Source of the DNA: Candidatus Electrothrix yaqonensis
GTDB lineage: Bacteria; Desulfobacterota; Desulfobulbia; Desulfobulbales; Desulfobulbaceae
Reading direction: 5' to 3'
Length of the DNA stretch: 32,000 bases
Assembly: GCA_047651235.1 (NCBI GenBank)
Contig: CP178758.1
Location: forward strand, 2,760,001 to 2,792,000
Part shown: piece after piece, positions 5,628-29,630 of the stretch
Position numbering within the stretch: position 1 is the first letter of the stretch
Layout of the letters: each line of letters starts with the position of its first letter
Made by a program: the position numbers and the translations under genes
Notes under the pieces: generated by a model
The model's database searches: none
What the model was told of the DNA's origin: nothing
The model's input: the letters and a program-made list of their open reading frames with translations, nothing else

Positions 5628-5769
5628 AATCGTATTTACTCTTCTGTATATCCTGTACGCCCTGCCTGCTCTGTTCACAACGCTGTTTACAACGTGCGGC
5701 CAGTTTTTCAGAGCAACTCCGGGCGTACAGGCTCTGCTGTGAATCGTATGGAGATACCGGCAGGGGATA

Positions 5770-7841: not shown

Positions 7842-7844
7842 ACC

Positions 7845-8807: not shown

Positions 8808-9733
8808 TCCGGGTTGCGGCAAAACTGATTATTCTGTTTGCTCTGCTCTACGCAGGAGTACACTTGGGCTATGCCAGGTTGGAAAAGGAGCTACTGCAGG
8901 GGAGCTGCTGTCCGCCCAGTCCACCCAATACTTCATCCCCGCAAAAACAGGGGCAGACCGCAGAGGCTCAGGGTAAAACAGGAAGATCAGTCCGCCAGCA
9001 GACCGGCAACAGACCGGCCAGTACTGCCCCTTCTGCAACAGCCGATAATAAAGGAGAAAAAAAGGAAGGTCAGCCGGATTTTCAGAGCATTATCCGCCGC
9101 AATATCTTTCAGCTTGTCCAGGAAGCAGCCGTACAGCCAGCAGCTCCGCCGGTCAGGGAAGAAAAAAGAGAAGAAGTTGTTCCGACACGCCTGAACCTGA
9201 CCTTGGTAGGAACTGTTACCGGGACCGAACAGACAGCCAGGGCGATTATTCTGGAGAGCGGCATGCAGCAGCAAAAACTCTTTCAGGTAGGGGATTCTGT
9301 GCAGCGCGCCATTATTGAGTCCATCGAGCGGGGCAAAGTTACCCTTGATGTAAACGGCACACTGGAAGTGCTACAGATGAAAAAACGGGAAGGCGGCGGC
9401 CCCAGGTCACCCTTTTCACCCGGAAGCATCTCCCGTCCATCCCGGATACCCCGGCGTACCCTAACACCTCCTCCAGACGATGAAATCGATGCTGATATAG
9501 ATGCTGATATAGATGACGATTTCGATGATATTGATGATGTCGAGATGGAGGATGAAAAGGAAGGCCCGGCGGCACAGAGACAGAGAAGCCCCGCTCCCCG
9601 TCGTTTCCGAAGGCCGAATTTCCGACGTAATCCGGCCCGGCAATCTGCTGCGGATCAGGACAGCGGCATTGAAGATGAGGATGCGGCAATTCCTCCTGAC
9701 GATATTGTAGAAGAGCTGCCGCCTGATGATTAA
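8804..9733 (+). CDS. gspC: Type II secretion protein GspC-like (TM + HR/PilP-like domain, no PDZ, acidic/proline tail)
   Basis: ATGA junction with gspN. N-terminal TM AAKLIILFALLYAGV. HR-like core LNLTLVGTVTGTEQTARAIILESG..KLFQVGDSVQRAIIESIERGKVTLDVNG. Immediately upstream of the secretin gene. Confidence 0.55.
   Translation: MIRVAAKLIILFALLYAGVHLGYARLEKELLQGSCCPPSPPNTSSPQKQGQTAEAQGKTGRSVRQQTGNRPASTAPSATADNKGEKKEGQPDFQSIIRRNIFQLVQEAAVQPAAPPVREEKREEVVPTRLNLTLVGTVTGTEQTARAIILESGMQQQKLFQVGDSVQRAIIESIERGKVTLDVNGTLEVLQMKKREGGGPRSPFSPGSISRPSRIPRRTLTPPPDDEIDADIDADIDDDFDDIDDVEMEDEKEGPAAQRQRSPAPRRFRRPNFRRNPARQSAADQDSGIEDEDAAIPPDDIVEELPPDD
9488..9511 (+). repeat. Tandem 12-bp repeat GATGCTGATATA x2 inside gspC (encodes DADIDADI)
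   Basis: Exact copies at 9488-9499 and 9500-9511, followed by degenerate GAT-rich codons (DDDFDDIDDVEMEDE). Confidence 0.9.
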
Positions 9734-9809
9734 CAGCCCCAGAGAAATACTGCTCTATCAATTCGCTGTGTTTGCCAGAAAACTCACTGTGATTTTGCAT
9801 CAGTTGATT

Positions 9810-12767
9810 ATGAAACATACATCCTGTTTGTACCATACGTTTGTTTACCATGCGTTTCGGCTTGTTCTCCTGTTCAGCCTGACAGTGGCTCTGCTGCCGC
9901 CTGCGGCTTCTGCTGCCGATCAGCCGGACAAAGATACGCAGCAGTCGCAGGCACCTGCTGCTGTTTCCCCTGACCAGCCGAAAAAAAAGGGGCAGCAATA
10001 TGTTACGATTGATTTTAATGATGTTGATATCAATATGTTCATTAAATATATCAGCGAGCTGACCGGAAAAAATTTTATCGTTGACCGTTCGGTCAAAGGC
10101 AAGATCACGGTTATCTCGCCGACTAAAATGTCCGAACAGGACGCCTACCGGGTCTTTGAATCAGTCCTGGAGGTCCACGGCTATACCACAGTGCCCAGCG
10201 GACCGATCATCAAGATCGTCCCTGCGGTACAGGCCAGGTCCAAAAATATTCCCATGGTCAGGGCAGGGGAGCACGTCGATTCTTCTGACAAGGTGGTCAC
10301 CCGGATTGTTCCGCTACAATATTCCGACCCGGATGAGCTGAAAAAACTCCTGACCCCTCTGCTCTCCAAAACCAGTGTCATGATTGCCCACCCACAGTCC
10401 GGTGTCCTGATCATGACCGATGTCCTGTCCAACATCAACCGGCTCATGGATATCATCGAAGTTGTTGATGTTCCGTCCACAGGAGAGGAAATGGAAATCA
10501 TCCCGCTGAGATATGCCTCTGCAGCCGATGTCGGGAAATCCATCAGCCAGCTCTTTGCCCGCTCTGCGAGACGACGGACCCGCACCAGGCGGGCAGCAAC
10601 CGAGATTCAGGTGATTCCCTATGAACGCACTAACTCCCTGATCGTTTTTGCCCCGAAAACCCAGATTGACAGCATTCGTGAGCTGGTACAGAAGCTGGAT
10701 ACTGAGGCGCCCAGAGGCGGCGGGAAAATACATGTATATTATCTCCAGCATGCCGATGCAGAAGAACTGGTCAAAGTGCTGACCAATCTGCCGACACAGC
10801 AGTCCGGAACCGGAGCCAAAAAGGGAGCAAAGGCGGCCGAAGTCCCGGTCCTGTCCACGGATTTGAAAATCACAGCTGATCCGGAAACCAACTCCCTGAT
10901 TATTACCGCTCCCAAAGAAGAGTATCTGGTCCTGGAAGATATTATCAGAAAACTTGATATTCCCCGCCGCATGGTTTACCTCGAAGCTCTGATCATGGAG
11001 GTTTCTATTGATAAAATCTTTCAGCTGGGTGTTGAATGGGGCGGTCTGGGTAGCTTCCATGATGAAACCGGTACCTTGGGAGCTGGTTTTACAGACAATA
11101 ACTTCGGTATGGTCAACGGTCTTACCCTAGGAACAGCAGGTATGCCCGACGGGACGACCCTCGGCATTCTGAAAAAAGGTGTCGAGATCAGCGGTATTTA
11201 TTTTCCGGATCTCGGATCGGTAGTCAATGCCTTTAAGACAGATTCAGATATCAATATCATTGCCACACCCCAAATTTTGACTACAGATAATAAGGAAGCA
11301 TCTATTGCGATCGTTCAGAATGTTCCTTATATCACCAGTAAGAATACCTCCGAGACCGGTAGCGGTCAGGATTATACTAATTATGAATATAAAGATGTAG
11401 GCACTACGCTAAAAATCACTCCGCAAATCAACCAAGACAATTTATTGCGGCTTGATATAGAAGTTGCGGTAGACAGGCTGAAAAGTGAGGCCAGCACTAC
11501 AACTCCGTCAACATTTAAACGAACTGCTAGCACAACTGTAGTTCTCCATAATGAAGAGATCGTTGTTATCGGAGGAATGGTGGGGAATGATACCACTTCC
11601 GGTGAGTACAAGGTTCCCCTGCTCGGTGATATTCCGTTGCTGGGCTGGCTGTTTAAAACCCATGAAGACAGTGACCGGAAAACCAACATGTTTATCTTCA
11701 TCATGCCCCGCATTGTTGAAAGTTCACCGGAGCTGGCTGGAATCTATGAACAGAAACGTAATGTTATGGATGAGGCCAGTGAAGGGGCAGGTGATGTACC
11801 GGAGCAGACCTTTCAGATCTCTGCGGGCCATGAAGACGCTTTTGTCCTCATTGACATGGGGTATGCCCGACTGCAGAAGAAAAAGTATGCTGAGGCAAAG
11901 GCATATTTTGAACAGGCCCTGGAGCTTGATCCGGACAACCAGCATGCCCTGCTCAACATGGGCACCATCTATGAACATGAAGGGGAAAAAGGCAAGGCGA
12001 TTCAGGTTTATGAACAGATACTCAACCGTGCTGAGCAGCAGCAGTATGGTGACGGTCCGGAACAGAAGAAGAGCGAGGATAAAGCACTGGTCAATATCGC
12101 GCGTGAAAAGCTGAACAAACTCCGCAATCCCAAGCAGATTGAACCGAAAGAACCGACCGGTTCCCCTCCCGGATCTCCAGAACCTTCGGGATCTCCCCGG
12201 ACAACGCTCCATCCTGCGGAAGTGAAGCATTCCTCTAAGGAACCGTCGCCTTCCGGACAGACCGGTGCAAAACCTCCGGGCAATACTCAGGCTGAGGAGC
12301 GGACCATTCCGGCAACTGAAGAGTCATGCGGCAACCCTTGGAAAACACCCCTTATGGAGATCAGAGGGAAAGTAAAAAAGGTGGAATACAGAAAGCCGCC
12401 GTGGAGTTCTCAAAAAGGACTGCATCTTGACGTGGAGATTGCTGGCAAGCAGAATATTGTTGTCCATGTCTTTCCGGAGCAGCCGAAACAGCTGACAAAG
12501 CAGTGTCAGGACCTGTTCACCTTTAAACAGGGAGAGATTGTCACTGTTTCCGGCTCTGCATTTTTCACCAAGGCAGGAAGTCAACCGAATATTTGTGCCG
12601 CTGCAGTTACCCGGAATGCAGGTGTACTGAACCTCAGAACTCCGACAACGGGCCGCCTTGAAAAAGGGACATGCTGTCAGGAAATCTGCAGGAAAAGATG
12701 TACCGGCAGGGGAGCGGTCTGCAGAAGGCGATGTATGGATCGCTGCAGCACAGAAGGCCGTTTTTAG
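9810..12767 (+). CDS. gspD: Type II secretion outer-membrane secretin GspD with ~340-aa C-terminal extension
   Basis: ATG 9810 is preferred because a signal-like LLFSLTVALLPPAASAA follows it. N0 domain YVTIDFNDVDINMFIKYISELTGKNFIVD. Secretin core IATPQILTTDNKEASI...VVIGGM...KVPLLGDIPLLGWLFK...TNMFIFIMPRIV ends near 11730, and the ORF continues to 12767. Confidence 0.9.
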   Translation: MKHTSCLYHTFVYHAFRLVLLFSLTVALLPPAASAADQPDKDTQQSQAPAAVSPDQPKKKGQQYVTIDFNDVDINMFIKYISELTGKNFIVDRSVKGKITVISPTKMSEQDAYRVFESVLEVHGYTTVPSGPIIKIVPAVQARSKNIPMVRAGEHVDSSDKVVTRIVPLQYSDPDELKKLLTPLLSKTSVMIAHPQSGVLIMTDVLSNINRLMDIIEVVDVPSTGEEMEIIPLRYASAADVGKSISQLFARSARRRTRTRRAATEIQVIPYERTNSLIVFAPKTQIDSIRELVQKLDTEAPRGGGKIHVYYLQHADAEELVKVLTNLPTQQSGTGAKKGAKAAEVPVLSTDLKITADPETNSLIITAPKEEYLVLEDIIRKLDIPRRMVYLEALIMEVSIDKIFQLGVEWGGLGSFHDETGTLGAGFTDNNFGMVNGLTLGTAGMPDGTTLGILKKGVEISGIYFPDLGSVVNAFKTDSDINIIATPQILTTDNKEASIAIVQNVPYITSKNTSETGSGQDYTNYEYKDVGTTLKITPQINQDNLLRLDIEVAVDRLKSEASTTTPSTFKRTASTTVVLHNEEIVVIGGMVGNDTTSGEYKVPLLGDIPLLGWLFKTHEDSDRKTNMFIFIMPRIVESSPELAGIYEQKRNVMDEASEGAGDVPEQTFQISAGHEDAFVLIDMGYARLQKKKYAEAKAYFEQALELDPDNQHALLNMGTIYEHEGEKGKAIQVYEQILNRAEQQQYGDGPEQKKSEDKALVNIAREKLNKLRNPKQIEPKEPTGSPPGSPEPSGSPRTTLHPAEVKHSSKEPSPSGQTGAKPPGNTQAEERTIPATEESCGNPWKTPLMEIRGKVKKVEYRKPPWSSQKGLHLDVEIAGKQNIVVHVFPEQPKQLTKQCQDLFTFKQGEIVTVSGSAFFTKAGSQPNICAAAVTRNAGVLNLRTPTTGRLEKGTCCQEICRKRCTGRGAVCRRRCMDRCSTEGRF

Positions 12768-12864
12768 GTTGCAGGCAGGCGCAGGCAGCAAAAAAATATT
12801 GTATTTATCCGGTCATAAGGTCATAACAACAGATGAGCAAAAGGCGGTTCCGGGGAGCAGCTGC

Positions 12865-14556
12865 ATGAAACATCTTGGAGAAATACTGATTGAATCCTTT
12901 GACCTGGAGGAAGAGGCAGTCAATGACGCGCTGAAAATACAGGACGAAAAAGGCGGTCGGCTGGGCAGAATTCTTATTCAGAGGAAAAAAATATCTGAAG
13001 ATGATCTGCTGCAGGCATTAAGTCAGCAATCCGGCCTGGAATTGCGGCATTCGCTCCCACCGGCCTTGGATCCTTTTTTTACAGAGCGGATTTCCATCGG
13101 TTTTTTAAAAAAATTTAAAATGATACCGGTGGCAACGCCGCAGGAGTCTTTTATTGCCCTGTCCGACCCGTTTTATTTTCAGCAGCTGGACGATCTTTGT
13201 CGTACCCTGCATTGGGAGGGGATCAGAATATATCTGGTTCCCAGCGATACGATTTTCATTGCCATCAACACGGCGTATGATCGATCCAGCCAAGGAGCAG
13301 CGGATCAGGTTCTGCAGGATATCGATGAAGACGATCCTGAGGCCATTCTTTCCGAAATTGAGGAAACTGCTGACCTGCTGGATGATACCAGCGATGCCCC
13401 GGTCATCAAACTGGTCAACCTGATCCTGTCCCAGGCTGTCCGGGACAATGCCAGTGATATTCATATTGAACCCTACAAGAATCAGGTGAAAATCCGGCAG
13501 CGGGTTGACGGGATACTCTATGATATGCTCACCCCGCCCAAGCATGTGCAGGCCAAACTGATTTCCAGGGTCAAAATTATGGCCAAGATGGATATCGCGG
13601 AGAAGCGTTTACCCCAGGACGGCCGTATTGAAATCCGCATTGCGGATAAAAACATTGACCTGCGTGTCTCCACCCTGCCCACATCGTTCGGCGAACGGGT
13701 GGTTATGCGGCTCCTGGATAAGTCCAATGTCCTGCTTTCCCTGGAACAGCTCGGCATGTCCCCGCGTGACCTGCAGCTTCTCCTTGAACTGATCAAGGCG
13801 CCTCACGGCATCATTCTGGTCACCGGCCCCACAGGCAGCGGCAAGACCACCAGTCTGTATTCCGTCCTGACCGTACTCAATAAACCTGATGTCAATATTA
13901 TCACTGTAGAGGATCCCATTGAGTACCAGATCAACGGGATCAGTCAGGTGCAGGTGAACGCAAAAATCGATCTCACCTTTGCCAAAGGTCTGCGTACCAT
14001 TGTCCGGCAGGATCCGGATATTATTCTGGTCGGCGAAATCAGGGATATGGAAACCGCTGAAATGGCGATTCAGGCTGCCCTGACCGGACATCTTGTTTTC
14101 TCCACCCTGCATACCAACGATGCTGCCAGCGCTGTTACCCGCCTGATTGATATGGGGGTGGAACCGTTCCTGGTTTCCTCATCAGTGAACGCCATTATGG
14201 GTCAGCGTCTGGTGCGGAAAATCTGCCCCCATTGCCGGGAAGCATACAGACCGTCTGAAGAATATCTGGAAAAACTCGATCTGCCAGCAGCATTTCAGGA
14301 TGCTGTGCTCTATCACGGCAAAGGCTGTGAAGAATGCCTGCATACCGGGTACCAGGGGAGGCTGGGTATTTATGAACTCATGGTGCTCTCGGAACATATC
14401 AAGAGCATGATCCTCACCACGTCGGATTCCGGGCGGATCAAGCGGGAGGCTCTGGCCGATCCTGATTATCCCATGACGACCCTGCGCATGGACGGGCTGC
14501 AGAAGGTGCTGGACGGCCTGACAACCCTTGAAGAGGTCTTCCGGGTCGCCGCCTGA
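12865..14556 (+). CDS. gspE: Type II secretion ATPase GspE
   Basis: ATG 12865. N-terminal T2SSE_N/MshEN-like helices. Walker A GPTGSGKTTS, ILVGEIRD (Walker B region) and tetracysteine CPHC...CEEC. 563 aa. Confidence 0.93.
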   Translation: MKHLGEILIESFDLEEEAVNDALKIQDEKGGRLGRILIQRKKISEDDLLQALSQQSGLELRHSLPPALDPFFTERISIGFLKKFKMIPVATPQESFIALSDPFYFQQLDDLCRTLHWEGIRIYLVPSDTIFIAINTAYDRSSQGAADQVLQDIDEDDPEAILSEIEETADLLDDTSDAPVIKLVNLILSQAVRDNASDIHIEPYKNQVKIRQRVDGILYDMLTPPKHVQAKLISRVKIMAKMDIAEKRLPQDGRIEIRIADKNIDLRVSTLPTSFGERVVMRLLDKSNVLLSLEQLGMSPRDLQLLLELIKAPHGIILVTGPTGSGKTTSLYSVLTVLNKPDVNIITVEDPIEYQINGISQVQVNAKIDLTFAKGLRTIVRQDPDIILVGEIRDMETAEMAIQAALTGHLVFSTLHTNDAASAVTRLIDMGVEPFLVSSSVNAIMGQRLVRKICPHCREAYRPSEEYLEKLDLPAAFQDAVLYHGKGCEECLHTGYQGRLGIYELMVLSEHIKSMILTTSDSGRIKREALADPDYPMTTLRMDGLQKVLDGLTTLEEVFRVAA

Positions 14557-16022: not shown

Positions 16023-16856
16023 ATGTATTTTGATTTCAACGAGTTGACAAAATTTACTTTAGGGAGTGATGGGAGAACAGTTCAATGTGTTGCGCAGTTC
16101 CTGAAACCTGTTCATATTGTTATGATGTCGATTCTTCATCATTATACTGATTGTTCTGCAACTTTTCTGTATCATGCTGATTATGCAAAGGTTATGAGGT
16201 TTGATGACCCTTTGGAGATCGATACTGTCGATGGCAGCAATCATTCGAAGGCTATAAAATTAAAAAATAAATTCGATAATGATAAGCAAGTCAAAAAAAT
16301 AATGACCATCCTTGAGGGGAATAATTATCTTGATAATGAAACAAATAGCATTTTAGAGCTTGTAATATCTGAAGTATTTCAAAATTTTTATGCGCATGCT
16401 GATACCGATAAACCTCCGATATGTTGTGTTCAGGACTGGTCTACATCGGATTTTATGGAAATTTCAATTGCTGATAACGGGATAGGAATTGGTAATGCGC
16501 TGGGAGCTGCTTTAAAAAATTATTCCGACAACAGTAATCCATGCAGGATAGCTTGTGACCTTGGTGTGAGTTCGTGCTTATATGGAAAGGGTAAGCTGGG
16601 AACCTCACATAGTGGTTATGGTTTGTATTACACGAAAAGATTTATTGAAGAAAACAAAGGGATTTTATTCTTGTTCTCCGGCAACACTTGCTATATAAAT
16701 AAAGATGGGGTAGAGAATGATAGGACTCTTCCATATTCTTGGAAAGGAACCGTTATTAGATTGATAATCAACAAGAAATACACTCTCCCCTCAAAATATT
16801 TCTTCGAGAAAATCGGTAAAGAAATAGATGGAGATGATTATGAAGAATTCTTTTAA
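16023..16856 (+). CDS. GHKL (Bergerat-fold) ATPase / putative Ser-kinase-like protein with an unrecognised ~105-aa N-terminal region
   Basis: 277-aa ORF in AT-rich DNA. N-box-like ELVISEVFQNFYAHA, G1 box ISIADNGIGIGNALG, G2 box SHSGYGLYYTKRFIEE. No TM, no DHp/His-box helix, no transducer domain. No clear SD before ATG 16023. Confidence 0.6.
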   Translation: MYFDFNELTKFTLGSDGRTVQCVAQFLKPVHIVMMSILHHYTDCSATFLYHADYAKVMRFDDPLEIDTVDGSNHSKAIKLKNKFDNDKQVKKIMTILEGNNYLDNETNSILELVISEVFQNFYAHADTDKPPICCVQDWSTSDFMEISIADNGIGIGNALGAALKNYSDNSNPCRIACDLGVSSCLYGKGKLGTSHSGYGLYYTKRFIEENKGILFLFSGNTCYINKDGVENDRTLPYSWKGTVIRLIINKKYTLPSKYFFEKIGKEIDGDDYEEFF

Positions 16857-20052: not shown

Positions 20053-20487
20053 TTATTTCTTTCTTTTCCCCCTGTTGCCGAATGATTTCCGCAGATTCGG
20101 ATGAATACCGCGTTCTTTGCTGGCCTTTGACCGCTCTTCGGAAAGAGCTTTTGCACAAAGGGACTGAGTACTGCTGAATCCGTATTTTTTCCGGTACTCT
20201 TTTGAGGTCATGCTGTGAGCTTTGACCAGATGTTTGGTGAGCATTTTAAATGACTGACCGCATTCCAGGCAGACGATTCTGTTTTTCTGGATGGATCTTT
20301 TCGGATCCATTGCCGGTTTTTCCTCTTTTTCCTCGATATTAATGCCTGCCAGCTCGGCCTCCTGCAAATCCTTCAGCGCCTGATAGGTATCATTAAGCGC
20401 ACCTTTAATTTCATCGGTTGTCATATTGGAACCGCTGATTTGCGACTGAATAATTTCAGCGGTCATCTCAACTAATGTTTTGCTCAT
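20053..20487 (-). CDS. MucR/Ros family zinc-finger transcriptional regulator
   Basis: 144 aa. CLECGQSFKMLTKHLVKAH (C-x2-C...H-x4-H) followed by SKEYRKKYGF is characteristic of Ros/MucR. Confidence 0.85.
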   Translation of the reverse strand: MSKTLVEMTAEIIQSQISGSNMTTDEIKGALNDTYQALKDLQEAELAGINIEEKEEKPAMDPKRSIQKNRIVCLECGQSFKMLTKHLVKAHSMTSKEYRKKYGFSSTQSLCAKALSEERSKASKERGIHPNLRKSFGNRGKRKK

Positions 20488-20664
20488 GTTATACTCCTTA
20501 AAAGCAGTAAAGATTTTTATCAGAAAAATTCTTATGTATATATCAAAACTGTTAGACTATATAATACAGCATATCATTATGCAAGATAATATTGAACCAT
20601 ATCGCACCGGATATTTTCTGCCTCTCGTTTTCATATCCCGCCTACCTGTTTCATTTTTCCACAG

Positions 20665-20693
20665 TTGACAGGCAGCCGGAGGAGGATTATTTT
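20665..20693 (+). promoter_or_regulatory. Sigma70-like promoter candidate upstream of the FmdB-family gene (TTGACA-17 nt-TATTTT)
   Basis: TTGACA at 20665-20670, a 17-nt spacer, then TATTTT at 20688-20693, in the AT-rich divergent region shared with the MucR-family gene. Sequence match only. Confidence 0.35.
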
Positions 20694-20796
20694 ATGTATC
20701 TTGGAAGGACAGTACAGTGTCCATACGGCGTTCCGCCGTTCTCTTTATTCCAATATTCAATATTTCAATGTGATATTTATATGTTGAGGTGAAAAA

Positions 20797-21144
20797 ATGC
20801 CTGTTTATGAGTACGAATGTCCGACATGCGAAAAAGTGTTTGAAGTGCAGCAGAAAATCAGTGACCAGCCGTTGACGGCATGTTCCCTGTGCGGCGGAGA
20901 GGTCAGAAAACTGGTCTCAAGAAGTGCTTTTCATCTGAAAGGCGGAGGATGGTATGCGGACGGATATGCTTCCGGTGCGCAGGAAGAAAGTAACGAAAAA
21001 AATAACGGAGAAAACAGCGGGACCACTCCGACGGGTAAAAAGGATACGACAAATGACACTGCAAAAGATACCGCAAAAACAGCGTCTTCTTCATGCGGAG
21101 GCGGCAACGGAAAAGCATGTGCAGGATGTCCGGCATCTGCCTGA
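20797..21144 (+). CDS. FmdB-family (CxxC_CxxC_SSSS) zinc-ribbon protein
   Basis: MPVYEYECPTCEKVFEV...CSLCGGEVRKLVS is the canonical N-terminal zinc ribbon. Low-complexity Thr/Lys/Asp tail. SD GAGGTG before the ATG. Confidence 0.8.
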   Translation: MPVYEYECPTCEKVFEVQQKISDQPLTACSLCGGEVRKLVSRSAFHLKGGGWYADGYASGAQEESNEKNNGENSGTTPTGKKDTTNDTAKDTAKTASSSCGGGNGKACAGCPASA

Positions 21145-21423
21145 CTGTCTTTCCGGCGGCTGTTCAGGCAGCCAAGCGGCGGACCGTTCAGTCTGAAACC
21201 TGAACCGTGCTGTGGAAACGGAAAACCGCCGGGAATCCGGCCCTGACAGCTGCCTGCCCCGGCAGCCATATCAGCCGAGCCAGCAGCCGATATCTGCGAT
21301 ATGAAAAGATGTAGGAGAGTACGCTGTTTTTCAATTGACAGCGTTTTGTTTTCGCTGGTACTCTGAATAAGGAACAATAAGATTAAACGTGTTTAAAATC
21401 ATAACTTCAACAGGAGCGGTGTG

Positions 21424-21789
21424 ATGGCGGGTGCAGAAGCAGTTGCGGAGAGTTCTTCCGGTGTCGGCTTTTTTGCAAAATTAGGCGCATGGATACAGAG
21501 TACCAATATCCCCGTGCAGGTAAAGGAAGTTGACTTTTCTGGCCTTTTCACTAATCCGTGGTTTATCGTTCCGTTTATTGCTCTAATTGCCTATCTTGTC
21601 TGGAAACAGTCGTTCAGCGAGCTGATTATTATAGGTATCTTCGTCGCTCTCTGGTGGGTAAGCGGCACGGAATATATGCAGACGCTTATTGTTGACGGAG
21701 AACTGCAGATAAAAAAGATACTGCCTGTTCTTGCCGGGGCTTCGGCAATTCTCGGATTCATTATTTATCTTTTTTTCGGTCGCTCCTGA
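21424..21789 (+). CDS. Small hypothetical membrane protein (about 3 TM)
   Basis: AGGAG lies 7 nt upstream of ATG 21424. Hydrophobic segments WFIVPFIALIAYLVW, LIIIGIFVALWWV and ILPVLAGASAILGFIIYLFF. I recognise no family. Confidence 0.45.
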   Translation: MAGAEAVAESSSGVGFFAKLGAWIQSTNIPVQVKEVDFSGLFTNPWFIVPFIALIAYLVWKQSFSELIIIGIFVALWWVSGTEYMQTLIVDGELQIKKILPVLAGASAILGFIIYLFFGRS

Positions 21790-21925
21790 TGTATTGCCTG
21801 CTGTGCACAGCCGCTTGTACGCCGCCTGTACAATGCATGCAATGTATACAGCCTCAGATCCGGAAATCGGAAATCAGAAGTTATAAAAAAATATACGCAA
21901 AAGCCCATACGTCAGGTTGCTCAGC

Positions 21926-23014
21926 ATGGAATATCGTAACGCTGTTTTTGTTGTTACTTCAGAAGATTCCTGTCCTATCTATAATGCAGGCGAGGAAATC
22001 CAGATTCAGGATGCGGCAGTCAGTGTCGATTACGAAAAACCGGTCTGCCTGATCCTGACACGTGAACTGCACAAGGCGCTTTCCAAGAAGCCTGGTGAAC
22101 AGCGGTTTACCCAGATGTCCATGCAGCGGGCTTCGTTCCGGTGTCCGGGCTGTACCGGCTCCATGCGGTTCGAGTATAAAAAGGAACGGGGTTTTTCCAC
22201 TCTGCAGATGAATCTGCTGCGGATTGCCGACAAGAAGGCGAGGAAACGGCATGTGGAGGCACTGTTCAAGCATCTGCGGACAATGCAGGTCTTTGAGTTG
22301 CTTGAAGATCACGATCTGCTTGACCTGATCTCCATGCTGAAACTGAAGCAGTTTGATCCGAACAAGGTGATTATCTCAGAAGGGGCCAGAGGAACCCACC
22401 TGTATATCATCTTGTCCGGCAAGGTTGCAATTGTTAAAGGAGAAGAAGTCATTGCCGAAATAGGACGCGGCGAGATCTTCGGGGAAATGAGTCTTCTCTC
22501 CGGTGAGCCGGCCAGCAGTTCGGTACACTCACGTACAGTTGTCAAATTCGGCACCATCAACGGCAAGGATCTCAAGTTTATCCTCAACAGGTATCCTGTG
22601 CTGCAGATTTTTTTCTATCGGCTGCTGGTTAACCGGGCGCAGATGAATATGGCCAGAACCGGAAAAATCAGTTCAGGAATGAGCGGGGAACTGATTTATA
22701 TCAATCCGGTGGAGCTGTTTCAGCTGATCAACAGCGGCGGCAAGTCGGGCAAGGTTGACCTGATTTTTTCTGACGGCCATGCGACAATTCTGTTCAAGGA
22801 AGGAGAGATTATTGATGCCGCCTACGGCGATCTCAAGGGCAAGGAGGCGTTGTTTGCCCTGCTTACCAAAAGGAAGGGATCATTTACCTACAACACTGAA
22901 CTGTCAAGGAAATATGAAGATCTTCCCGTGCTTGGCGGGTTTATGGGGCTGCTGATGGAGGGGCTGCAGCGTATTGATGAGGAGGGACTGGAACAGAAAG
23001 AACAGGCGTCCTGA
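21926..23014 (+). CDS. Three-module sensor protein: 4-Cys N-terminal module + cNMP-binding-like domain + DUF4388-like domain (paralogue A)
   Basis: 362 aa from ATG 21926. Cys16/41/73/76 (CPIYNAGEE...VCL...RCPGCTG). CNB-fold signature ISEGARGTHLYIILSGKV...GEIFGEMSLLSG. DUF4388-like SGELIYINPVELFQLINSGGKSGKVDLIFSDGHATILFKEGEIIDAAYGDLKGKEALFALLTKRKGSFTY. Confidence 0.75.
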   Translation: MEYRNAVFVVTSEDSCPIYNAGEEIQIQDAAVSVDYEKPVCLILTRELHKALSKKPGEQRFTQMSMQRASFRCPGCTGSMRFEYKKERGFSTLQMNLLRIADKKARKRHVEALFKHLRTMQVFELLEDHDLLDLISMLKLKQFDPNKVIISEGARGTHLYIILSGKVAIVKGEEVIAEIGRGEIFGEMSLLSGEPASSSVHSRTVVKFGTINGKDLKFILNRYPVLQIFFYRLLVNRAQMNMARTGKISSGMSGELIYINPVELFQLINSGGKSGKVDLIFSDGHATILFKEGEIIDAAYGDLKGKEALFALLTKRKGSFTYNTELSRKYEDLPVLGGFMGLLMEGLQRIDEEGLEQKEQAS

Positions 23015-23046
23015 CTCTGACAACGTTTGAAAAAACGAGACGGTCA

Positions 23047-24129
23047 ATGGAATACCGTAATGCTGTATTTGTTGTGACTGAGGAGCATGCCTGTCCGATA
23101 TATAATGTAGGGGAAGAATTTGTTATTCATGATTCGACTCTTTCCATAGAGCGGAACAAAGAGGTCTGTCTGATCATGGTACGGGATCTGCTGGCAGCGC
23201 TTGCCAGTAAAAAACCTTTGGCACCACGCTTTACCCAGACGGGAATGCGGCGGACCAAATTTGAATGCGGCGGATGTACCGGACTTATTCGGTTCGAATA
23301 TAAAAAGGAAAACGCCTACTCCACCCTGCAGATGAATCTCCTGGAGGTGGCAAAAAGGCGGGCAAAAAAACAACTCCTCGAAGAGTTCTTTAATCTTCTC
23401 AGAGATATGGAGCTTTTTGAACCCCTTGACGATTTTGATCTGCAGGATCTCGCTCTGTTGATGAAACTGCAGAAGTATCCCTCCAATAAAGTCATTATTG
23501 AGTCCGGTGCGGTAGGAACCCACTTTTATGTTGTCTTGTCCGGTAAAGTAGCTGTTGTCCGGGATGACAACGAAACTGTCGCTGAACTCGGTCCGGGAGA
23601 AATTTTCGGAGAAATGAGCCTGCTCTCCGGTGCACTGACTTATCCCTCAGTCTATTCGAAAACGCCGGTTCAGCTGGCATCTCTGAAGGCGAAAGACTTC
23701 AAACATGTTCTTTCCAGGTACCCGATCCTGCAGATTTTTTTCTACCGTGTTCTAGTGAGCCGTGCGCAGAAAAATACCATGCAGTCCGGGAATATCAGTT
23801 CCGGTATGACCGGAGAACTTTCCGACATCAACTCTGTGGAGCTGTTTCAGCTGATTAATGCTGGCGGCAAGAGCGGAAAAGTCTGTTTTGTCTTTGACGA
23901 ATGCCAAGCTGTTACCCTGTTCAACGAAGGCGAGATTGTTTTCTGCAGATATGGTGAACAGAAAGGCAAAGGTGCATTTTTTTCCCTGCTGACCAAACAG
24001 AAAGGGCAGTTCACGTATACCACGGGGCTGTCGCATGAGGAAAAAGAACTGCCCGTGCTCGGCGGATTTATGGGGCTGGTTATGGAAGGACTGCGCCGTC
24101 TGGACGAAGAGCAGGAAGCCGAAGATTAA
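23047..24129 (+). CDS. Three-module sensor protein, paralogue B of 21926-23014
   Basis: 360 aa, starting 32 nt after paralogue A. Colinear with A, identical at roughly half or more of positions by eye, including MEYRNAVFVVT, the four Cys, GEIFGEMSLLSG, VELFQLIN.GGKSGKV and LPVLGGFMGL.MEGL.R.DEE. Confidence 0.75.
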   Translation: MEYRNAVFVVTEEHACPIYNVGEEFVIHDSTLSIERNKEVCLIMVRDLLAALASKKPLAPRFTQTGMRRTKFECGGCTGLIRFEYKKENAYSTLQMNLLEVAKRRAKKQLLEEFFNLLRDMELFEPLDDFDLQDLALLMKLQKYPSNKVIIESGAVGTHFYVVLSGKVAVVRDDNETVAELGPGEIFGEMSLLSGALTYPSVYSKTPVQLASLKAKDFKHVLSRYPILQIFFYRVLVSRAQKNTMQSGNISSGMTGELSDINSVELFQLINAGGKSGKVCFVFDECQAVTLFNEGEIVFCRYGEQKGKGAFFSLLTKQKGQFTYTTGLSHEEKELPVLGGFMGLVMEGLRRLDEEQEAED

Positions 24130-24179
24130 ACATCCGTTATCCTGTAATATCATTCCCGGCAGCGGTTATTCCTCTGTAT

Positions 24180-24321
24180 ATTTAATGCGAATTAGGAGTT
24201 GGATTATCCGGTCTCAGTAAAAACAGGTAGTTACAGAAAATCCGTTCCGATTCTGCAGAATCTGGCAGCTTTATCCTCTTGATTTTGCGTCATAGATTTT
24301 AACTCCTAATTCGCATATTTA
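24180..24321. mobile_element. MITE-like element: 16-bp perfect terminal inverted repeats flanked by 5-bp direct repeat ATTTA
   Basis: ATGCGAATTAGGAGTT at 24185-24200 is the exact reverse complement of AACTCCTAATTCGCAT at 24301-24316. ATTTA sits at 24180-24184 and at 24317-24321. An internal perfect 14-bp palindrome GATTCTGCAGAATC lies at 24249-24262. The right arm covers the fabB stop and its last codons. A structured RNA or terminator is the alternative. Confidence 0.45.
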
Positions 24322-25529
24322 CGGAAGATCAGGCAGGCATTGGTGCCGCCGAATCCGTAGCTGTTCGACATGACGCAGTTCAGCTCTTTTCGCTGTATTT
24401 CCTGGACAATATGCATCTCCTCGGCTTCCGGTTCCAACGTATGGATATTGGCGGTTGCGGCAATAAAATTATGCCTGAGCATGAGCAGGCTGTAGATGGC
24501 CTCATGCACCCCGGCAGCTCCCAAAGCATGGCCGGAAAGCGATTTAGTGGAGCTGATCAGGGGGATGCTGCTGCCGAAGACATAGCGGATCGCCTGCAGT
24601 TCAACCAGATCACCGACAGGCGTGGACGTTCCGTGGGCATTGATATACTCAACAGCTTCGGCGGGGCAGCCTGCGGATTCCAAAGCAAGAGCAATACAGC
24701 GGGCTGCGCCTTCGCCTGACGGAGTCACCATTTCATATCCGTCTGCTGTAGCGCCATACCCGATAAGCTCGCCATAAATTTCCGCACCCCGCTGACGGGC
24801 GTGGTCCAGTTCCTCCAATACCACCATTCCTGCGCCGTTGGCAACCACAAAGCCGTCCCGGTCCACATCATAGGGTCGGGATGCCTGTTCCGGGCAGTCA
24901 TTGAATTTTGTGGATAGTGCTCCCATTGCGTCAAACATGGAGGTCTGGGTCCAGTGTTCCTCATCACTGCCGCCTGCAAAAACAATATCCTGCTTCCCCA
25001 GCTGAATCTGCTCCATTGCCGCACCTATACAATGGGAGCCGGTGGCACAGGCCGAGGAGATGGAATAGCAGGTTCCTTTGATTTGAAAAGGCGCGGTCAG
25101 TCCTGCTGAGACAGTGCTGGACATGGTGCGCGGTACCATAAATGGACTCAGACGGCGCAGACCTCTGCTGCGCATAATATCTGCCGTATCGACCACATTT
25201 TCAGCAGATGTGCCGCCTGAACCGATAATCAGGCCGGTACGCGGCGAGGAAACCTGATCAGGCTGCAGCCCGCTGTCCTGCACAGCCTGCCGCATGGCTA
25301 TATAGGCATAAGCGGCTGCTTTTCCCATGAAACGGAGCACTTTCTTATCAATATGTTCTTTACAGTTGAGCCGGGTGAACGCTCCGATCTGGGAACGGAG
25401 TCCGAGTTCTTTGTACGGTTCCCAATACTGGACTCCTGACCGTCCTTCCTGCAGGGAGACAAGAACATCCTCCACTGTATCGCCGAGGGAGGACACGATG
25501 CCCATCCCTGTGATGACCACTCTGCGCAT
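24306..25529 (-). CDS. fabB: 3-oxoacyl-ACP synthase I (KAS I, FabB-type)
   Basis: 407 aa, colinear with E. coli FabB as I remember it ([40 protein letters not shown] identical block, [33 protein letters not shown]). Confidence 0.9.
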
Positions 25530-25786: not shown

Positions 25787-25984
25787 TCATTCAGCACGCT
25801 CTTTTTTTACCTCAGATGAGTCTGTCCCGTTGATGCAGGACAGAGTACCGAGAGTACTGCCGAACAGCTGTTCCGTTTTATGGGCAAAACTTCTCGGCAG
25901 ATGCATAGCTTTAAAATCTTGTCGTTTTTCCATCTTCCGGCGGAATTGCTCAATGTTGATCGAGGAGCTGTCTGAGTCGGGCAT
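25787..25984 (-). CDS. Possible small hypothetical protein (65 aa)
   Basis: ATG 25984 is preceded by AAGGAAG with 5-nt spacing and overlaps the 3' end of the upstream membrane/GAF-like gene by 35 nt. No recognisable motif, so it could be spurious. Confidence 0.25.
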   Translation of the reverse strand: MPDSDSSSINIEQFRRKMEKRQDFKAMHLPRSFAHKTEQLFGSTLGTLSCINGTDSSEVKKERAE

Positions 25985-27095
25985 GTTTGCTTCCTTGTAC
26001 AAGCATATGATTGACGGTTATTGAGAACGATACCGTTTCACTCAGCATATCAGCGAGAAACCGCATACAGTCGATATGTTCTTCACGGAATGCCTTTTTC
26101 TTCCCTGAAGTAAGATACAGGATGCCGATCATGCTTTTCTTTTTGCCGTCCCAGCCTGTGAGCGGCGCAACCATCATCGAGGCAACCTGGCGAAAAAACT
26201 GTCTGTCATCTTCTGCCTCCTGAAACACCTTTTCCCGTATAGCCCGGCCCATATCCCTGTACAGGAGCACGTCGTATTTATTCCGGTCTTCAATCAGACA
26301 GCGGGGAATCCCCTGGTTGGCAGGAATCGCTTCGCCCGGCCAATTGCTCTGTTCCAATCCTTTTGTCCGGGCCGCTGTCCCGTAGACAACATTCCCCTGT
26401 TCCTGGGGATGGGGAAATGCTATGCGGACAGCAAGCTCAATCGTTCTGTCTCCAGTGACAGCAGTAATGTACTCTTTGCAGAGTTCAAGGGTATCAGTAA
26501 AATGAGTCAGACATTCATCGGGGGCCGCCTTTTCATTGCTGGAGAGCTTTCTGAATAATTTTGTCTGGCTGTCCCGTATATGCCGGGAAAGCTGCTGCAG
26601 ACTGTTCTGCATATCCAACGTCCGCAGCGTTCTCCGGTGCAGGCTGAAAAAATTCGCACCGACAAATGAAAGCGTTATTGCCGCAATGATGCTGCTTTGC
26701 AGCACCGGCGAAAAATCAGGCAGAAAAAAAGCATGTAAGGCAAGAAAGAGAGCTGCCGAATAGATGCCAAGATAGAGCGTCCATCTTCTGCGGAAAAAAA
26801 AGGCAAACTGGTTATACTGCCATGCAGACCGGCCATCAGAATATGCAGCAAGGCAATACCGTTCCGTCCACCCGAAAACAGCAGACAACGGAGCTTCCTG
26901 CACCTCTTTAAAGATAAAACAGGTTGTTAGTATGGGAAAGGCATAAAAAAAAGGCCAGTAGTCCTGCAACAGCGCCTTAAGTGCATTTCCTTGAAAATAG
27001 GTCGATATTTCCAGTCCTGCCTGCAGACAGGCAAGCTGCAGCAAGTAGAGAATAATGAATTTACCGCTTTTTGCAGTCAACGACTGTTGTTTCAT
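25950..27095 (-). CDS. Membrane protein (about 4 TM) with C-terminal GAF-like domain
   Basis: 381 aa. N-terminal hydrophobic helices (FIILYLLQLACLQAGL, WPFFYAFPILTTCFIF, LYLGIYSAALFLALHAFFL, IIAAITLSFVGANFF). The C-terminal ~170 aa end in a GAF-like pattern ...ASMMVAPLTGWDGKKKSMIGILYLTSGKKKAFREEHIDCMRFLADMLSETVS. The domain call is from pattern memory only. Confidence 0.45.
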   Translation of the reverse strand: MKQQSLTAKSGKFIILYLLQLACLQAGLEISTYFQGNALKALLQDYWPFFYAFPILTTCFIFKEVQEAPLSAVFGWTERYCLAAYSDGRSAWQYNQFAFFFRRRWTLYLGIYSAALFLALHAFFLPDFSPVLQSSIIAAITLSFVGANFFSLHRRTLRTLDMQNSLQQLSRHIRDSQTKLFRKLSSNEKAAPDECLTHFTDTLELCKEYITAVTGDRTIELAVRIAFPHPQEQGNVVYGTAARTKGLEQSNWPGEAIPANQGIPRCLIEDRNKYDVLLYRDMGRAIREKVFQEAEDDRQFFRQVASMMVAPLTGWDGKKKSMIGILYLTSGKKKAFREEHIDCMRFLADMLSETVSFSITVNHMLVQGSKHARLRQLLDQH

Positions 27096-27190: not shown

Positions 27191-27793
27191 TTACGCTTTC
27201 ACTCTGTTCACTTCATTTTGGGAAAAACGCTTGAGCAGCAGCTGAATAAGATAAAAACCGAATTTCGGATTCTGGTAATAAAGCTGTTTTATCCGGGTGT
27301 CCGTCATGGAGAGTAGCTCAACCTCGGTTGCGCAGCGCAGGGTGGCCAGCCGCACCGGATTACTGGCAAAGACCCCCATCTCGCCGAAAATCTCTCCCGC
27401 TTTGATGACGACATCCAGTTCGTCCACCGTAATACTGCCGGATTTGAGGAGATAGATTTTGCCTGCTTTATCTCCGCGGCGAAAGACGATATCATCTTTT
27501 TTTAATTGCTCTTTATGCATGTGAGGAATCATAAAGTCAAAAGACATGTCGCCCTCGGATGCTGCCTGAACTTGCTCAATCAGTTTGAGCATCTGAATCA
27601 GCCGGAAAAAATTCATGGGCAGCAGGACAGTATGCAGCACAAGCAGCGGCCATACCTCAGCATTGACCGCGTAGACAATAAAGGTCGCATTACTGGCCAT
27701 CCCGACGATCCTGAGGGGAATCATATTTTTCATGTAAAATGTTGAAAACATTAAACATGCCGCAGTAAACCCCAGTACTTCAACACAATCCAT
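27191..27793 (-). CDS. Small membrane-anchored cyclic-nucleotide-binding domain protein
   Basis: 200 aa. Three N-terminal hydrophobic segments, then a CNB fold: IVFRRGDKAGKIYLLKSGSITV...GEIFGEMGVFASNPVRLATLRCAT, with the phosphate-binding-cassette Arg present. Confidence 0.7.
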   Translation of the reverse strand: MDCVEVLGFTAACLMFSTFYMKNMIPLRIVGMASNATFIVYAVNAEVWPLLVLHTVLLPMNFFRLIQMLKLIEQVQAASEGDMSFDFMIPHMHKEQLKKDDIVFRRGDKAGKIYLLKSGSITVDELDVVIKAGEIFGEMGVFASNPVRLATLRCATEVELLSMTDTRIKQLYYQNPKFGFYLIQLLLKRFSQNEVNRVKA

Positions 27794-28167: not shown

Positions 28168-28230
28168 CTGTGCTCTGTACAATGCGTACAGCTTCAGTGA
28201 CAGCGTGAAATTCCGCTGTCTTACATGGCG

Positions 28231-29508
28231 TTACATGGAGGCACCGGAAGCAGCACCCTGCATTTTGACCTCAACCTTTTCGGTCAGGCTGCCATAGTAC
28301 TTCTTGAGGTGATCGAGTACTTCATCGCGACCGAAATGATCGACGATGTCAGCACCCTCAGACAGGGCCTTGCGCAGTTTGGTTCCGGACAGGATAACAC
28401 GGTCGTCTTTGGTGTGGTTGCAGGTCCGCAGAGAAGCCATACCGTCACATTTATGGCAGTAGAAGGTCCAGTCGATTTTCATGGGCTGGCAGAGCAGATC
28501 TTTGCCCGGCTCACCGGTTTTCGGGATCCGATCAAAAATCTCCTGAGCCTCGAACAAGCCGTAGAAATCACCCACACCGGCATGGTCACGACCGATCAGC
28601 ATATCGCTGATTCCGTAGTTCTGGCGGAAGGTGGCATGGAGCAGACCTTCGCGGGGACCGGCATAGCGCATATCCAGCGGATAACCGCCATTGATGACGT
28701 TATCTTTGACAAAGTAGTTGTCGATCAGAATCTCGATAGCCTTAACGCGGGTATCCGCCGGGATATCACCGGGCTTCAGGTTGCCGATCAGAGAGTGAAT
28801 CAGAACGCCGTCACAAACCTCAATGGCAATCTTGGCCAGATACTCATGGGAGCGGTGCATGGGGTTACGCAGCTGCAGGGCAGCAACCTTGGACCAGCCG
28901 CGCTCCTCAAACATGGCGCGGGTCTCTGCCGGGGTCAGGTACACGCCCGGATACTCGTCCGGATAGCTGCCCTGAGAAAGAACTTTAACCGATCCGGCAA
29001 TGTTGACCTCTTTCTGGTTCATCACCATAATAACGCCGGGATGATCTTCCGGGGCGATCTCCCAGAACTTTCCGTCCACAGACTCCTCACCTTCGCCCAT
29101 GAAGACCTTCTCGCACTCCCACTTCTTGTCAGCCTCGGTCATTTCGTACTTTTCACTGACCTTCATGGTAGCCATAATCTCGCCGTCGGCTTCAAGGGCT
29201 ATCTCGTCACCCAGCTCAATGGCATCCGCATCTGCCTTGGAGATGTCCAAGGTGATGGGCACCGGCCAGAATGTTCCGTCTGCCAGCTGAAAATTTTCGC
29301 ATACGTTTTTCCAGTCCGCCTTGGTCATAAACCCGTCCAGCGGAGAGAACCCGCCGATTCCCAGCATGATCAGGTCGCCTTTTGCGCGGGCACTGACCTG
29401 CACTTTTTTCAGACCTGCTGCTTTTTCTTTTTCAGCTGCCAGTTCACTGCCGTGCAGCAGCGCGCAGACCAGACCTTTTCCGCCGTGAGGGGCTACCAGT
29501 TTAGACAT
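28231..29508 (-). CDS. sat: Sulfate adenylyltransferase (ATP sulfurylase), sulfate-reducer type
   Basis: 425 aa. [10 protein letters not shown]..., [13 protein letters not shown] and IGRDHAGVG motifs, Cys/His cluster [27 protein letters not shown] before the ATG. Confidence 0.93.
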
Positions 29509-29630
29509 GATTCTTTCCTCTTCTGTTGAATGGTGGTTATGTAACTTGCTTTGATATCATATTTAAGTTGCCTGAAAACCGAAATTCAGAGGTACTCAGG
29601 TCGTCGAAAAATCGCTTACAAAAGAAACTA

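Follow-up and report, generated by a model that had tools for sequence, protein, structure and literature searches.

Tandem proteins of Candidatus Electrothrix yaqonensis combine a four-cysteine module, an atypical cyclic nucleotide-binding fold and a PATAN domain

Here, we describe two adjacent genes, designated paralogues A and B, in a 32,000-nucleotide (nt) stretch of contig CP178758.1 of the cable bacterium Candidatus Electrothrix yaqonensis (hereafter the window, to which all coordinates refer unless a locus is named). Both encode proteins in which an N-terminal four-cysteine module (N-module) is followed by a cyclic nucleotide-binding (CNB) fold and a C-terminal PATAN domain, the latter listed in Pfam as DUF4388. 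The CNB and PATAN parts are known and the N-module is probably a distant relative of the named, uncharacterized family TIGR04076, but the architecture itself appears to be without a published description: a literature search found no characterized protein and no account of it, in agreement with the first-pass annotation of this DNA, which had not recognized the combination as a characterized family. Taking conservation, domain content and the published behavior of PATAN together, we give about an even chance to the reading that A and B are soluble, non-DNA-binding one-component transducers, in which the inputs would come from a Cys4 metal centre together with a CNB pocket of atypical kind, and docking by PATAN would be the output.

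Results

Two colinear paralogues

The open reading frames (ORFs) of A and B are co-oriented and separated by 32 nt (23015–23046), and the products, colinear and of about 360 amino acids (aa) as initially annotated, align over 355 aa with 59% identity (BLASTP, E = 6e-155), a similarity that is far beyond chance. Both proteins begin with MEYRNAVFVVT and carry four cysteines at the positions and in the motifs given by the first-pass annotation, namely, C16, C41, C73 and C76 in A and C16, C41, C74 and C77 in B. An in-frame TTG at 21917 is a possible alternative start of A; the ATG at 21926 was adopted because homologues begin with MEYRN. No helix-turn-helix (HTH), enzymatic domain or transmembrane segment was found in A or B in Pfam and NCBIfam scans. 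These absences had been correctly noted at the outset as a lack of HTH, enzymatic output and transmembrane segments, but DUF4388 corresponds to PATAN, a published protein-docking output, so that an output domain is present.

Conservation and architectures of the N-module

The first ~110 residues produced no Pfam or NCBIfam match, even when scanned alone at E values up to 10, and sequence and profile searches of the PDB with the N-module were empty or insignificant. In an alignment of 41 close homologues, C16, C41, C73 and C76 (numbering of A) are invariant, and in a broader alignment of 69 sequences, with identities as low as 26%, C16, Y19, C41, C73 and C76 are, glycines aside, the only residues of the entire protein that never vary. 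The cysteines are spaced C-x24-C-x31-C-x2-C and are present in 68 of the 68 distant cluster representatives, with the last two (C73 and C76) found in 67 of 68, the exception being a fragment; in a few N-modules, C-x5-C replaces C-x2-C. Conservation of the cysteines across homologues had been proposed as a check at first pass, and both the close and the distant sequences bear it out. Given this pattern, we infer that the four cysteines hold a metal centre.

The occurrence of the N-module was assessed by an exhaustive HMMER profile search of 1.84 billion cluster representatives (E up to 1e-3), which replaced a word-indexed homologue search that had returned only fragments. The module was found in only 162 clusters, and the architectures were mapped with local hidden Markov models (HMMs) for the N-module, CNB and PATAN, yielding 56 N-module–CNB–PATAN proteins, about nine full-length N-module–PATAN proteins of 194–295 aa that lack CNB, one protein with two CNB domains and one with an additional N-terminal CNB, the remainder being truncated pieces. 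In complete proteins, the N-module is always paired with PATAN, and CNB is dispensable. Because N-module–PATAN proteins exist, the N-module appears to be the best candidate for the primary sensor or regulator. Apparent standalone N-modules (matches of 86–120 aa) were rejected as a separate architecture, since they resemble calls of the two full architectures that were cut short by truncation or a frameshift.

Additions at the N-terminus of the cassette are rare and consist of REC (P0288), Zn_ribbon_4 or pentapeptide repeats-TIR. Such upstream fusions suggest that the cassette takes further N-terminal inputs, as would be expected if PATAN is the output. The metagenomic fusion relatives are P0226, P0227, P0288, P0248 and P0304; the TIR fusions (pentapeptide repeats-TIR-N-module-CNB-PATAN) are 746–773 aa long and raise the possibility that some lineages use the cassette in defence. 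In another rare metagenomic relative, the N-module is fused to a C-terminal FGE-sulfatase domain, without PATAN.

Relation of the N-module to TIGR04076

The first-pass annotation suggested a likeness of the N-module to small TIGR04076-like cysteine proteins. A and B have no match to the NCBIfam model TIGR04076 at E values up to 10; weak matches were obtained for 12 of the 41 relatives (best E = 2.6e-4), and the distant member P0263 scored 16.8 bits, covering profile positions 4–65 of 91, against the membership cut-off of 33 bits. For profile-profile comparison, a set of TIGR04076 proteins was retrieved using one sequence as bait only, and the members were verified at 82–93 bits. Aligned with hhalign over 67 columns, the N-module and TIGR04076 produced a probability of 43–50% and E values of 1.6–2.5e-4, and the four N-module cysteines fell on the four best-conserved cysteines of TIGR04076 (conserved at 100%, 100%, 96% and 100%). 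In 30 column shuffles used as controls, the score did not exceed 15.3 and the probability 1.4%, compared with scores of 26.1–26.4 for the real alignment. Thus, the suggested resemblance is upheld and membership is not: judged from these profiles, the N-module is a probable remote homologue of TIGR04076 and not a member.

The shared features are colinear, comprising C-P-x-[FY]-x2-G-[QDE]-E-F, then P-x-x-C, then a cysteine pair followed by G-x-[IV]-x-F. The pair is an adjacent CC in TIGR04076 but CxxC in the N-module, and TIGR04076 proteins are standalone and ~100 aa long, whereas the N-module is fused to PATAN. TIGR04076 consists of uncharacterized cysteine-rich proteins of anaerobic bacteria and methanogens, for which no Pfam family, solved structure (PDB searches) or functional literature was found. 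The link therefore yields no function, and suggests an old Cys4 module that is apparently concentrated in anaerobes.

A conserved CNB fold without the phosphate-clamping arginine

Both the CNB and the DUF4388-like domains proposed at first pass scored above the Pfam gathering thresholds in A and B. For PF00027 (cNMP_binding), the matches span aa 141–223 of A (67.8 bits) and aa 142–225 of B (66.2 bits), against a cut-off of 27.5. PDB matches of the CNB region include PKG, PKA-R, MloK1 and the CNB domains of HCN channels, with E values from 1e-31 to 1e-8, and Foldseek gave template modelling (TM) scores of up to 0.8 on single CNB domains. The CNB fold is, therefore, secure.

The phosphate-binding cassette (PBC) reads FGEMSLLSGEPASSSV in A and FGEMSLLSGALTYPSV in B. 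Where PKG has an arginine, A has alanine, HMMER aligning ‘GEPASSSV’ of A to ‘DEPRSATI’ of PKG. In PKA, PKG, CRP and MloK1, the residue at this position clamps the cyclic phosphate, the canonical motif being F-G-E-[LM]-A-L-x3-P-R-[ST]-A. Across the 69 sequences, the cassette FGEMSLLSG is well maintained (F in 60/69, G in 69/69, E in 68/69, M in 63/69 and S in 65/69), and arginine at the clamping position was found in none of them, the residue there being V, A, T, I, C, H, Y or L. Of the features expected of a functional cAMP or cGMP receptor, then, the Gly-Glu pair is retained and the arginine is missing. Because it is missing in all 69 sequences, canonical binding of cAMP or cGMP is unlikely, so that the early description of the domain as ‘cNMP-binding-like’ (cyclic nucleotide monophosphate, cNMP) is accurate for the fold but probably not for the ligand. 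A pocket that is conserved yet non-canonical points to a different ligand or an intramolecular role rather than decay. No conserved cysteine was found in the CNB domain in the 69-sequence alignment.

Among the structural neighbors are the trypanosome PKA regulatory subunits (PDB 6flo, 6h4g and 6hyi), in which a CNB domain without the canonical PBC arginine binds nucleosides, not cAMP. These proteins differ in being eukaryotic kinase regulators with tandem CNB domains, and sequence identity is just 16–19%; by analogy, they offer a precedent for an atypical CNB pocket.

PATAN as the likely output

PF14332 (DUF4388) matches aa 253–353 of A with 58 bits, covering profile positions 1–121 of 122, and aa 255–355 of B with 51.9 bits, against a cut-off of 25. 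The domain is ~101 aa long and C-terminal and was modelled by AlphaFold2 (AF2) with a predicted local distance difference test (pLDDT) score of 83–98. A PDB search with its sequence and profile matched no solved structure.

In Synechocystis PixE, the PATAN domain on its own binds the N-terminal domains of both the pilus ATPase PilB1 and PilC, shows membrane localization and reverses the direction of phototaxis (bioRxiv 10.1101/2021.06.11.447907). The same study reports that other bacteria have PATAN proteins with many different architectures, along with their co-occurrence with GspE_N domains. In some cyanobacteria, PATAN is fused to the c-di-NMP receptor ComFB (PMC12448109). With the PatA-type regulators of cyanobacteria (PixE, PixG and LsiR of Synechocystis and PatA of Anabaena), A and B share a bona fide PATAN domain and the lack of a DNA-binding or enzymatic domain. 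By this analogy, PATAN is likely a protein-docking output in A and B as well. The differences are that PatA-type proteins contain REC, whereas A and B have no Response_reg match and are thus not response regulators; that the inputs of A and B are the four-cysteine module and CNB; and that their hosts are Desulfobulbales instead of cyanobacteria. Moreover, PATAN of A and B is minimal, C-terminal and apparently without the alpha-helical insertion, given that the AF2 secondary structure of the ~101-residue domain, read without an explicit alignment to PatA or PixE, does not include inserted helical hairpins.

Predicted structure

With the diverse 69-sequence alignment as input, AF2 reached a mean pLDDT of 87.9, and 82–93 within the N-module outside the variable loop at residues 51–70; an earlier run with 41 close sequences, in which the N-module pLDDT was 43–68, was superseded. 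In the predicted order of elements, strand 6–14 precedes C16, strands 24–28 and 31–34 follow, C41 lies at the N-terminus of helix 42–53, strand 70–73 ends in C73, and a turn containing C76 leads into strand 79–85. This predicted topology is compatible with the four cysteines converging on one site. A long linker helix (aa 93–118) leads into the CNB domain, which ends with its C-helix (aa 224–244), and the model as a whole consists of confident, separate modules joined by long helices. Foldseek searches of both full-length AF2 models against the PDB returned only CNB-domain matches.

Family distribution and duplication history

A protein search identified 938 relatives, of which the best 120 were characterized by domains, length and source description. 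All 120 contain the PF00027 and PF14332 pair, and they are typically ~355–375 aa long, originating from Electrothrix, Electronema, Desulfobulbus, Desulfolithobacter and related metagenome-assembled genomes (MAGs). They are labelled as ‘cyclic nucleotide-binding domain-containing’, ‘DUF4388 domain-containing’, ‘CRP-like cAMP-binding protein’ or, occasionally, ‘TIGR04076 family’. One protein from an ENA metagenome (P0011, 634 aa) is about twice the normal length and contains both Pfam domains; it may represent a tandem A–B pair joined by read-through or fusion, or else an artefact of assembly or frameshifting.

A scan of species-representative genomes detected at least 479 loci, and the best 80 were searched by tblastn for the genes and context of the window. 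All 80 belong to Desulfobulbales (Desulfobulbaceae, Desulfocapsaceae and relatives), and the closest, with ~95% protein identity, are those of Candidatus Electrothrix laxa, marina and aarhusensis, which places the window in a marine cable bacterium. Apart from one Desulfobulbaceae MAG, only the cable bacteria (Electrothrix and Electronema) have the A–B tandem, the remaining loci carrying a single B-like gene; tblastn assigned all the single-copy Desulfobulbaceae loci to B, and a neighbor-joining (NJ) tree agrees. The family is centred on Desulfobulbales and normally single-copy.

In the NJ tree, one A/B duplication maps to the common ancestor of the cable bacteria and the sister MAG, and B was later duplicated within Electrothrix, producing an unlinked third copy (loci L055 and L062). 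This third paralogue is 66–69% identical to B and, in E. laxa (L055, 6001–7071), lies ~246 kb from the tandem. The stem of the A clade is long, yet the clade is 87–95% conserved among Electrothrix and Electronema; within Electrothrix, identity is 92–95% for A and 79–84% for B. By these sequence comparisons, A is the diverged copy specific to cable bacteria, and B is closer to the single-copy Desulfobulbaceae orthologues.

Genomic neighborhood

Features of the tandem, its upstream genes and the clusters discussed here are collected in Table 1.

Table 1. Coordinates of the tandem genes, their domains and neighboring features (window positions, or positions within the named locus)
Feature	Coordinates	Strand	Description
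Paralogue A	21926..23014	+	362 aa; N-module, linker helix, CNB, PATAN
A N-module	21926..22195	+	aa 1–90; C16, Y19, C41 and C73-x2-C76 invariant
A CNB fold	22346..22594	+	Pfam match, aa 141–223; whole domain with helices ~aa 119–245
A PATAN (DUF4388)	22682..22984	+	aa 253–353; C-terminal helix then to ~aa 361
Paralogue B	23047..24129	+	360 aa; architecture as in A
B N-module	23047–23319	+	aa 1–91
B CNB	23470–23721	+	aa 142–225
B PATAN	23809–24111	+	aa 255–355
FmdB-family zinc ribbon	20797..21144	+	115 aa; TIGR02605 67.4 bits, PF09723 55.1 bits
Small membrane protein	21421..21789	+	122 aa; three hydrophobic segments; conserved upstream partner gene
GspK	4518–5627	+	T2SS/T4P-like cluster
GspL/PilN-like gene	5770–7299	+	T2SS/T4P-like cluster
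GspM	7299–7841	+	T2SS/T4P-like cluster
GspC	8804–9733	+	T2SS/T4P-like cluster
Secretin	9726–12767	+	1013 aa; C-terminal TPR region; T2SS/T4P-like cluster
GspE/PilB-type ATPase	12658–14556	+	MshEN/GspE_N domain; last gene of T2SS/T4P-like cluster
Chemotaxis cluster, locus L088	14371–21089		Downstream of tandem
Chemotaxis cluster, locus L089	7670–12282		Downstream of tandem

The first-pass annotation placed an FmdB zinc ribbon and a tiny membrane protein, both upstream of A, tentatively in the same unit as the tandem; the membrane protein was borne out, and FmdB was not as far as the family is concerned. A gene for a membrane protein of ~120 aa lies upstream of the sensor gene on the same strand in 48 loci, with a median gap of ~73 nt, and equivalents of 112–123 aa occupy this position in Desulfolithobacter, Desulfobulbus elongatus and Electronema. 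The hydrophobic segments of the 122-aa protein (Kyte-Doolittle) span residues ~42–60, 64–83 and 100–119, its conserved motifs are VD..gLFtNPWF, sGT.YMQtLVV and KvLPv..G...lG..iYl.fgRS, and it belongs to no Pfam or NCBIfam family. FmdB is found upstream only in the cable bacteria and the sister MAG (L001–L007, L009, L088 and L089) and was not found at that position in other Desulfobulbaceae among the best 80 loci and the inspected neighborhoods; it was accordingly rejected as a family-wide member, and its place in the functional unit is doubtful. A consensus scan of 20400–24400 for promoters and terminators gave counts no higher than in shuffled sequences, so that the operon is read from synteny alone. 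The neighbors of more distant family members are unrelated.

Divergent from the block formed by FmdB, the membrane protein, A and B is a gene for a Ros/MucR-family zinc-finger regulator (20053–20487, minus strand, 130 bits). Because its position is kept in all cable-bacterial loci examined, this regulator is a candidate that could control the block.

Upstream of the tandem by ~7 kb, the window contains a complete cluster resembling a type II secretion system or type IV pilus (T2SS/T4P; 3362–14556, plus strand). As listed, the GspE-like ATPase ORF begins at a TTG within the secretin ORF, giving a 110-nt overlap (12658–12767) with its end, and the true start is probably further downstream. The cluster was rejected as a conserved syntenic partner of the tandem, being absent upstream in Electronema and replaced by unrelated contexts in other Desulfobulbales. 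A chemotaxis cluster encoding REC-CheB, a dCache-HAMP methyl-accepting chemotaxis protein, CheW and REC lies 3–5 kb downstream of the tandem in two other cable bacteria, Electronema aureum and a further Electrothrix; the window has unrelated genes at this position, indicating that the region is rearranged.

Several other features of the window were recorded. A second CNB protein (27191–27793, minus strand, 200 aa) apparently combines two N-terminal hydrophobic helices with cNMP_binding, and in its PBC, ‘FGEMGVFASNPVRLAT’, the arginine is displaced by one position. Beside it, a 381-aa hydrophobic protein without a Pfam family is encoded at 25950–27095 (minus strand), and tblastn did not detect either gene around the tandem in the other loci of cable bacteria. 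The segment 16001–17000 has a guanine-plus-cytosine content of 35.5%, compared with ~50–55% elsewhere in the window, and may have been horizontally acquired; it includes a 277-aa ORF (16023–16856, plus strand) with a weak HATPase_c_2 match of 22 bits, below the cut-off. Finally, a 434-aa ORF without a family match (28225–29529, plus strand) is fully antisense to the ATP sulfurylase gene (28231–29508, minus strand; PUA_2 and ATP-sulfurylase) and is probably a non-coding mirror ORF.

Discussion

Under the reading that A and B are non-DNA-binding transducers, there would be two inputs, the invariably present Cys4 module and the atypical CNB pocket that is usually found with it. The state of the metal centre would be relayed along the linker helix and the CNB C-helix, the signal would be augmented by a ligand in the CNB pocket that is neither cAMP nor cGMP (such as a nucleoside-like or different small molecule), and the relay would control exposure of PATAN. 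PATAN would then dock onto a membrane-associated machine, by analogy with PixE and other PatA-type regulators. The likeliest target would be a PilB/GspE-type assembly ATPase together with its platform protein, so that pilus-dependent motility or polarity could be tuned, and the co-encoded protein with three hydrophobic segments would be the likeliest membrane tether or partner in Desulfobulbaceae. The PilB/GspE-type ATPase and the co-encoded membrane protein are thus the leading candidate targets by analogy; since the published PATAN binds the N-terminal domain of such an ATPase, the GspE/PilB-type ATPase of the window is itself a candidate partner. The lineage-specific duplication would have produced two sensors, with a third in Electrothrix, presumably tuned differently.

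Several observations weigh against this reading. Metal binding by the N-module is read from conservation alone, and cyclic nucleotides could in principle still be bound in another way despite the loss of the arginine. The connection of PATAN with pili comes from distant cyanobacterial PATAN domains that contain an alpha-helical insertion, so that the minimal PATAN may bind something else. In the inspected neighborhoods, genes for pili, chemotaxis or MglA/B are not consistently found next to the family members, and the T2SS-like cluster of the window, ~7 kb from the tandem, is not syntenic in Electronema.

The nature of the cysteine site bears most directly on the inputs. A redox- or oxygen-labile Fe or Fe-S centre and a structural zinc site are about equally likely, and a sensory role of the site is slightly favoured because the minimal N-module–PATAN proteins have no other input domain. 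It is conceivable, though on balance we consider it somewhat unlikely, that the N-module is a structural zinc domain of the Cys4 zinc-ribbon or treble-clef-like kind that serves dimerization or partner binding, with sensing by the CNB pocket alone and no redox or metal signal. The AF2 arrangement, with a CxxC knuckle in a beta-hairpin, a cysteine at a helix N-terminus and a loop cysteine, is a typical zinc-site layout; there are weak zinc-ribbon and zinc-finger Pfam matches at the CxxC; and the ligands of structural zinc are likewise invariant. However, N-module–PATAN proteins without CNB would then have no sensor, the adjacent cysteines of TIGR04076 and the C-x5-C of a few N-modules are unusual for a classical zinc knuckle, and the apparent concentration of the N-module family and TIGR04076 in anaerobes fits Fe or Fe-S at least equally well. 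Whether the two copies act together is a separate matter. We think it unlikely that A and B form an obligate heterodimeric sensor pair, as the first-pass annotation suggested from the tandem duplication. In favor of such a pair are their adjacency, co-orientation and 32-nt spacing, the retention of both in all cable-bacterial loci examined and the common dimerization of CRP-type CNB proteins through the C-helix. Almost all Desulfobulbales carry one copy, so that the ancestral protein would have worked as a homomer or monomer and not in a heteromeric pair; in addition, Electrothrix has the unlinked third copy, and A and B evolve at very different rates, which is unusual for tightly co-evolving subunits. 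For these reasons, obligate pairing is possible but not favoured.

Least probable in our estimation is that A and B are ordinary cAMP or cGMP receptors in which cNMP binding controls the output, possibly transcription. The strong CNB-fold matches, the retained Gly-Glu pair, the JGI and NCBI labels ‘CRP-like cAMP-binding protein’ and ‘Crp/Fnr family transcriptional regulator’, and the presence, ~3.5 kb away from one distant member, of a gene for a class III cyclase all agree with such a role. Nevertheless, the clamping arginine occurs in 0/69 sequences, PATAN stands in place of HTH_Crp or any other DNA-binding domain, and the scores for the NCBIfam models of CRP, FNR and NtcA are far below their cut-offs (CRP, 31.7–37.5 bits against 266), as is that for FtrB; neither the C-terminal winged-helix HTH nor an HMM score above cut-off that would mark a CRP/FNR transcription factor was found. 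DNA binding by PATAN is, moreover, argued against by the PixE study (bioRxiv 10.1101/2021.06.11.447907). With no arginine, no HTH and sub-threshold CRP-family scores, the view of A and B as cAMP receptors or transcription factors is poorly supported.

A likeness to CRP and FNR persists at the level of the CNB beta-roll and C-helix, and the logic is FNR-like in that an N-terminal cysteine element precedes a CNB domain that does not or, in A and B, probably does not bind cNMP. In FNR, an N-terminal Cx2Cx5C extension and one cysteine of the beta-roll ligate a [4Fe-4S] cluster. A and B do not have this pattern, their cysteines all lying in a separate N-terminal domain of ~90 aa instead of a short extension, and they lack the C-terminal HTH.

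Returning to the preferred reading of A and B as transducers with a PATAN output, its most specific form holds that the Cys4 site carries an Fe or Fe-S centre that responds to redox state or oxygen and gates a PilB/GspE-type motor through PATAN, in effect an FNR-like sensor wired to motility or secretion instead of DNA, with A, B and the third copy tuned differently for positioning the filament across the oxic-sulfidic gradient. We regard this version as speculative and improbable. If it were true, redox-position sensing by cable bacteria would become genetically testable. If the module merely belongs to a zinc-stabilized adaptor, the analysis would still correct the labels ‘CRP-like cAMP-binding protein’ and ‘Crp/Fnr transcriptional regulator’.

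PATAN is widespread and barely understood outside cyanobacteria, and the family described here joins it to a TIGR04076-like cysteine module and a clamp-less CNB fold in what would be a compact one-component pathway, with a sharply defined and experimentally tractable Cys4 module. To our knowledge, the gliding and redox-positioning behavior of cable bacteria has no known sensor. Kept across Desulfobulbales and expanded in cable bacteria, these proteins are reasonable candidates for that role.

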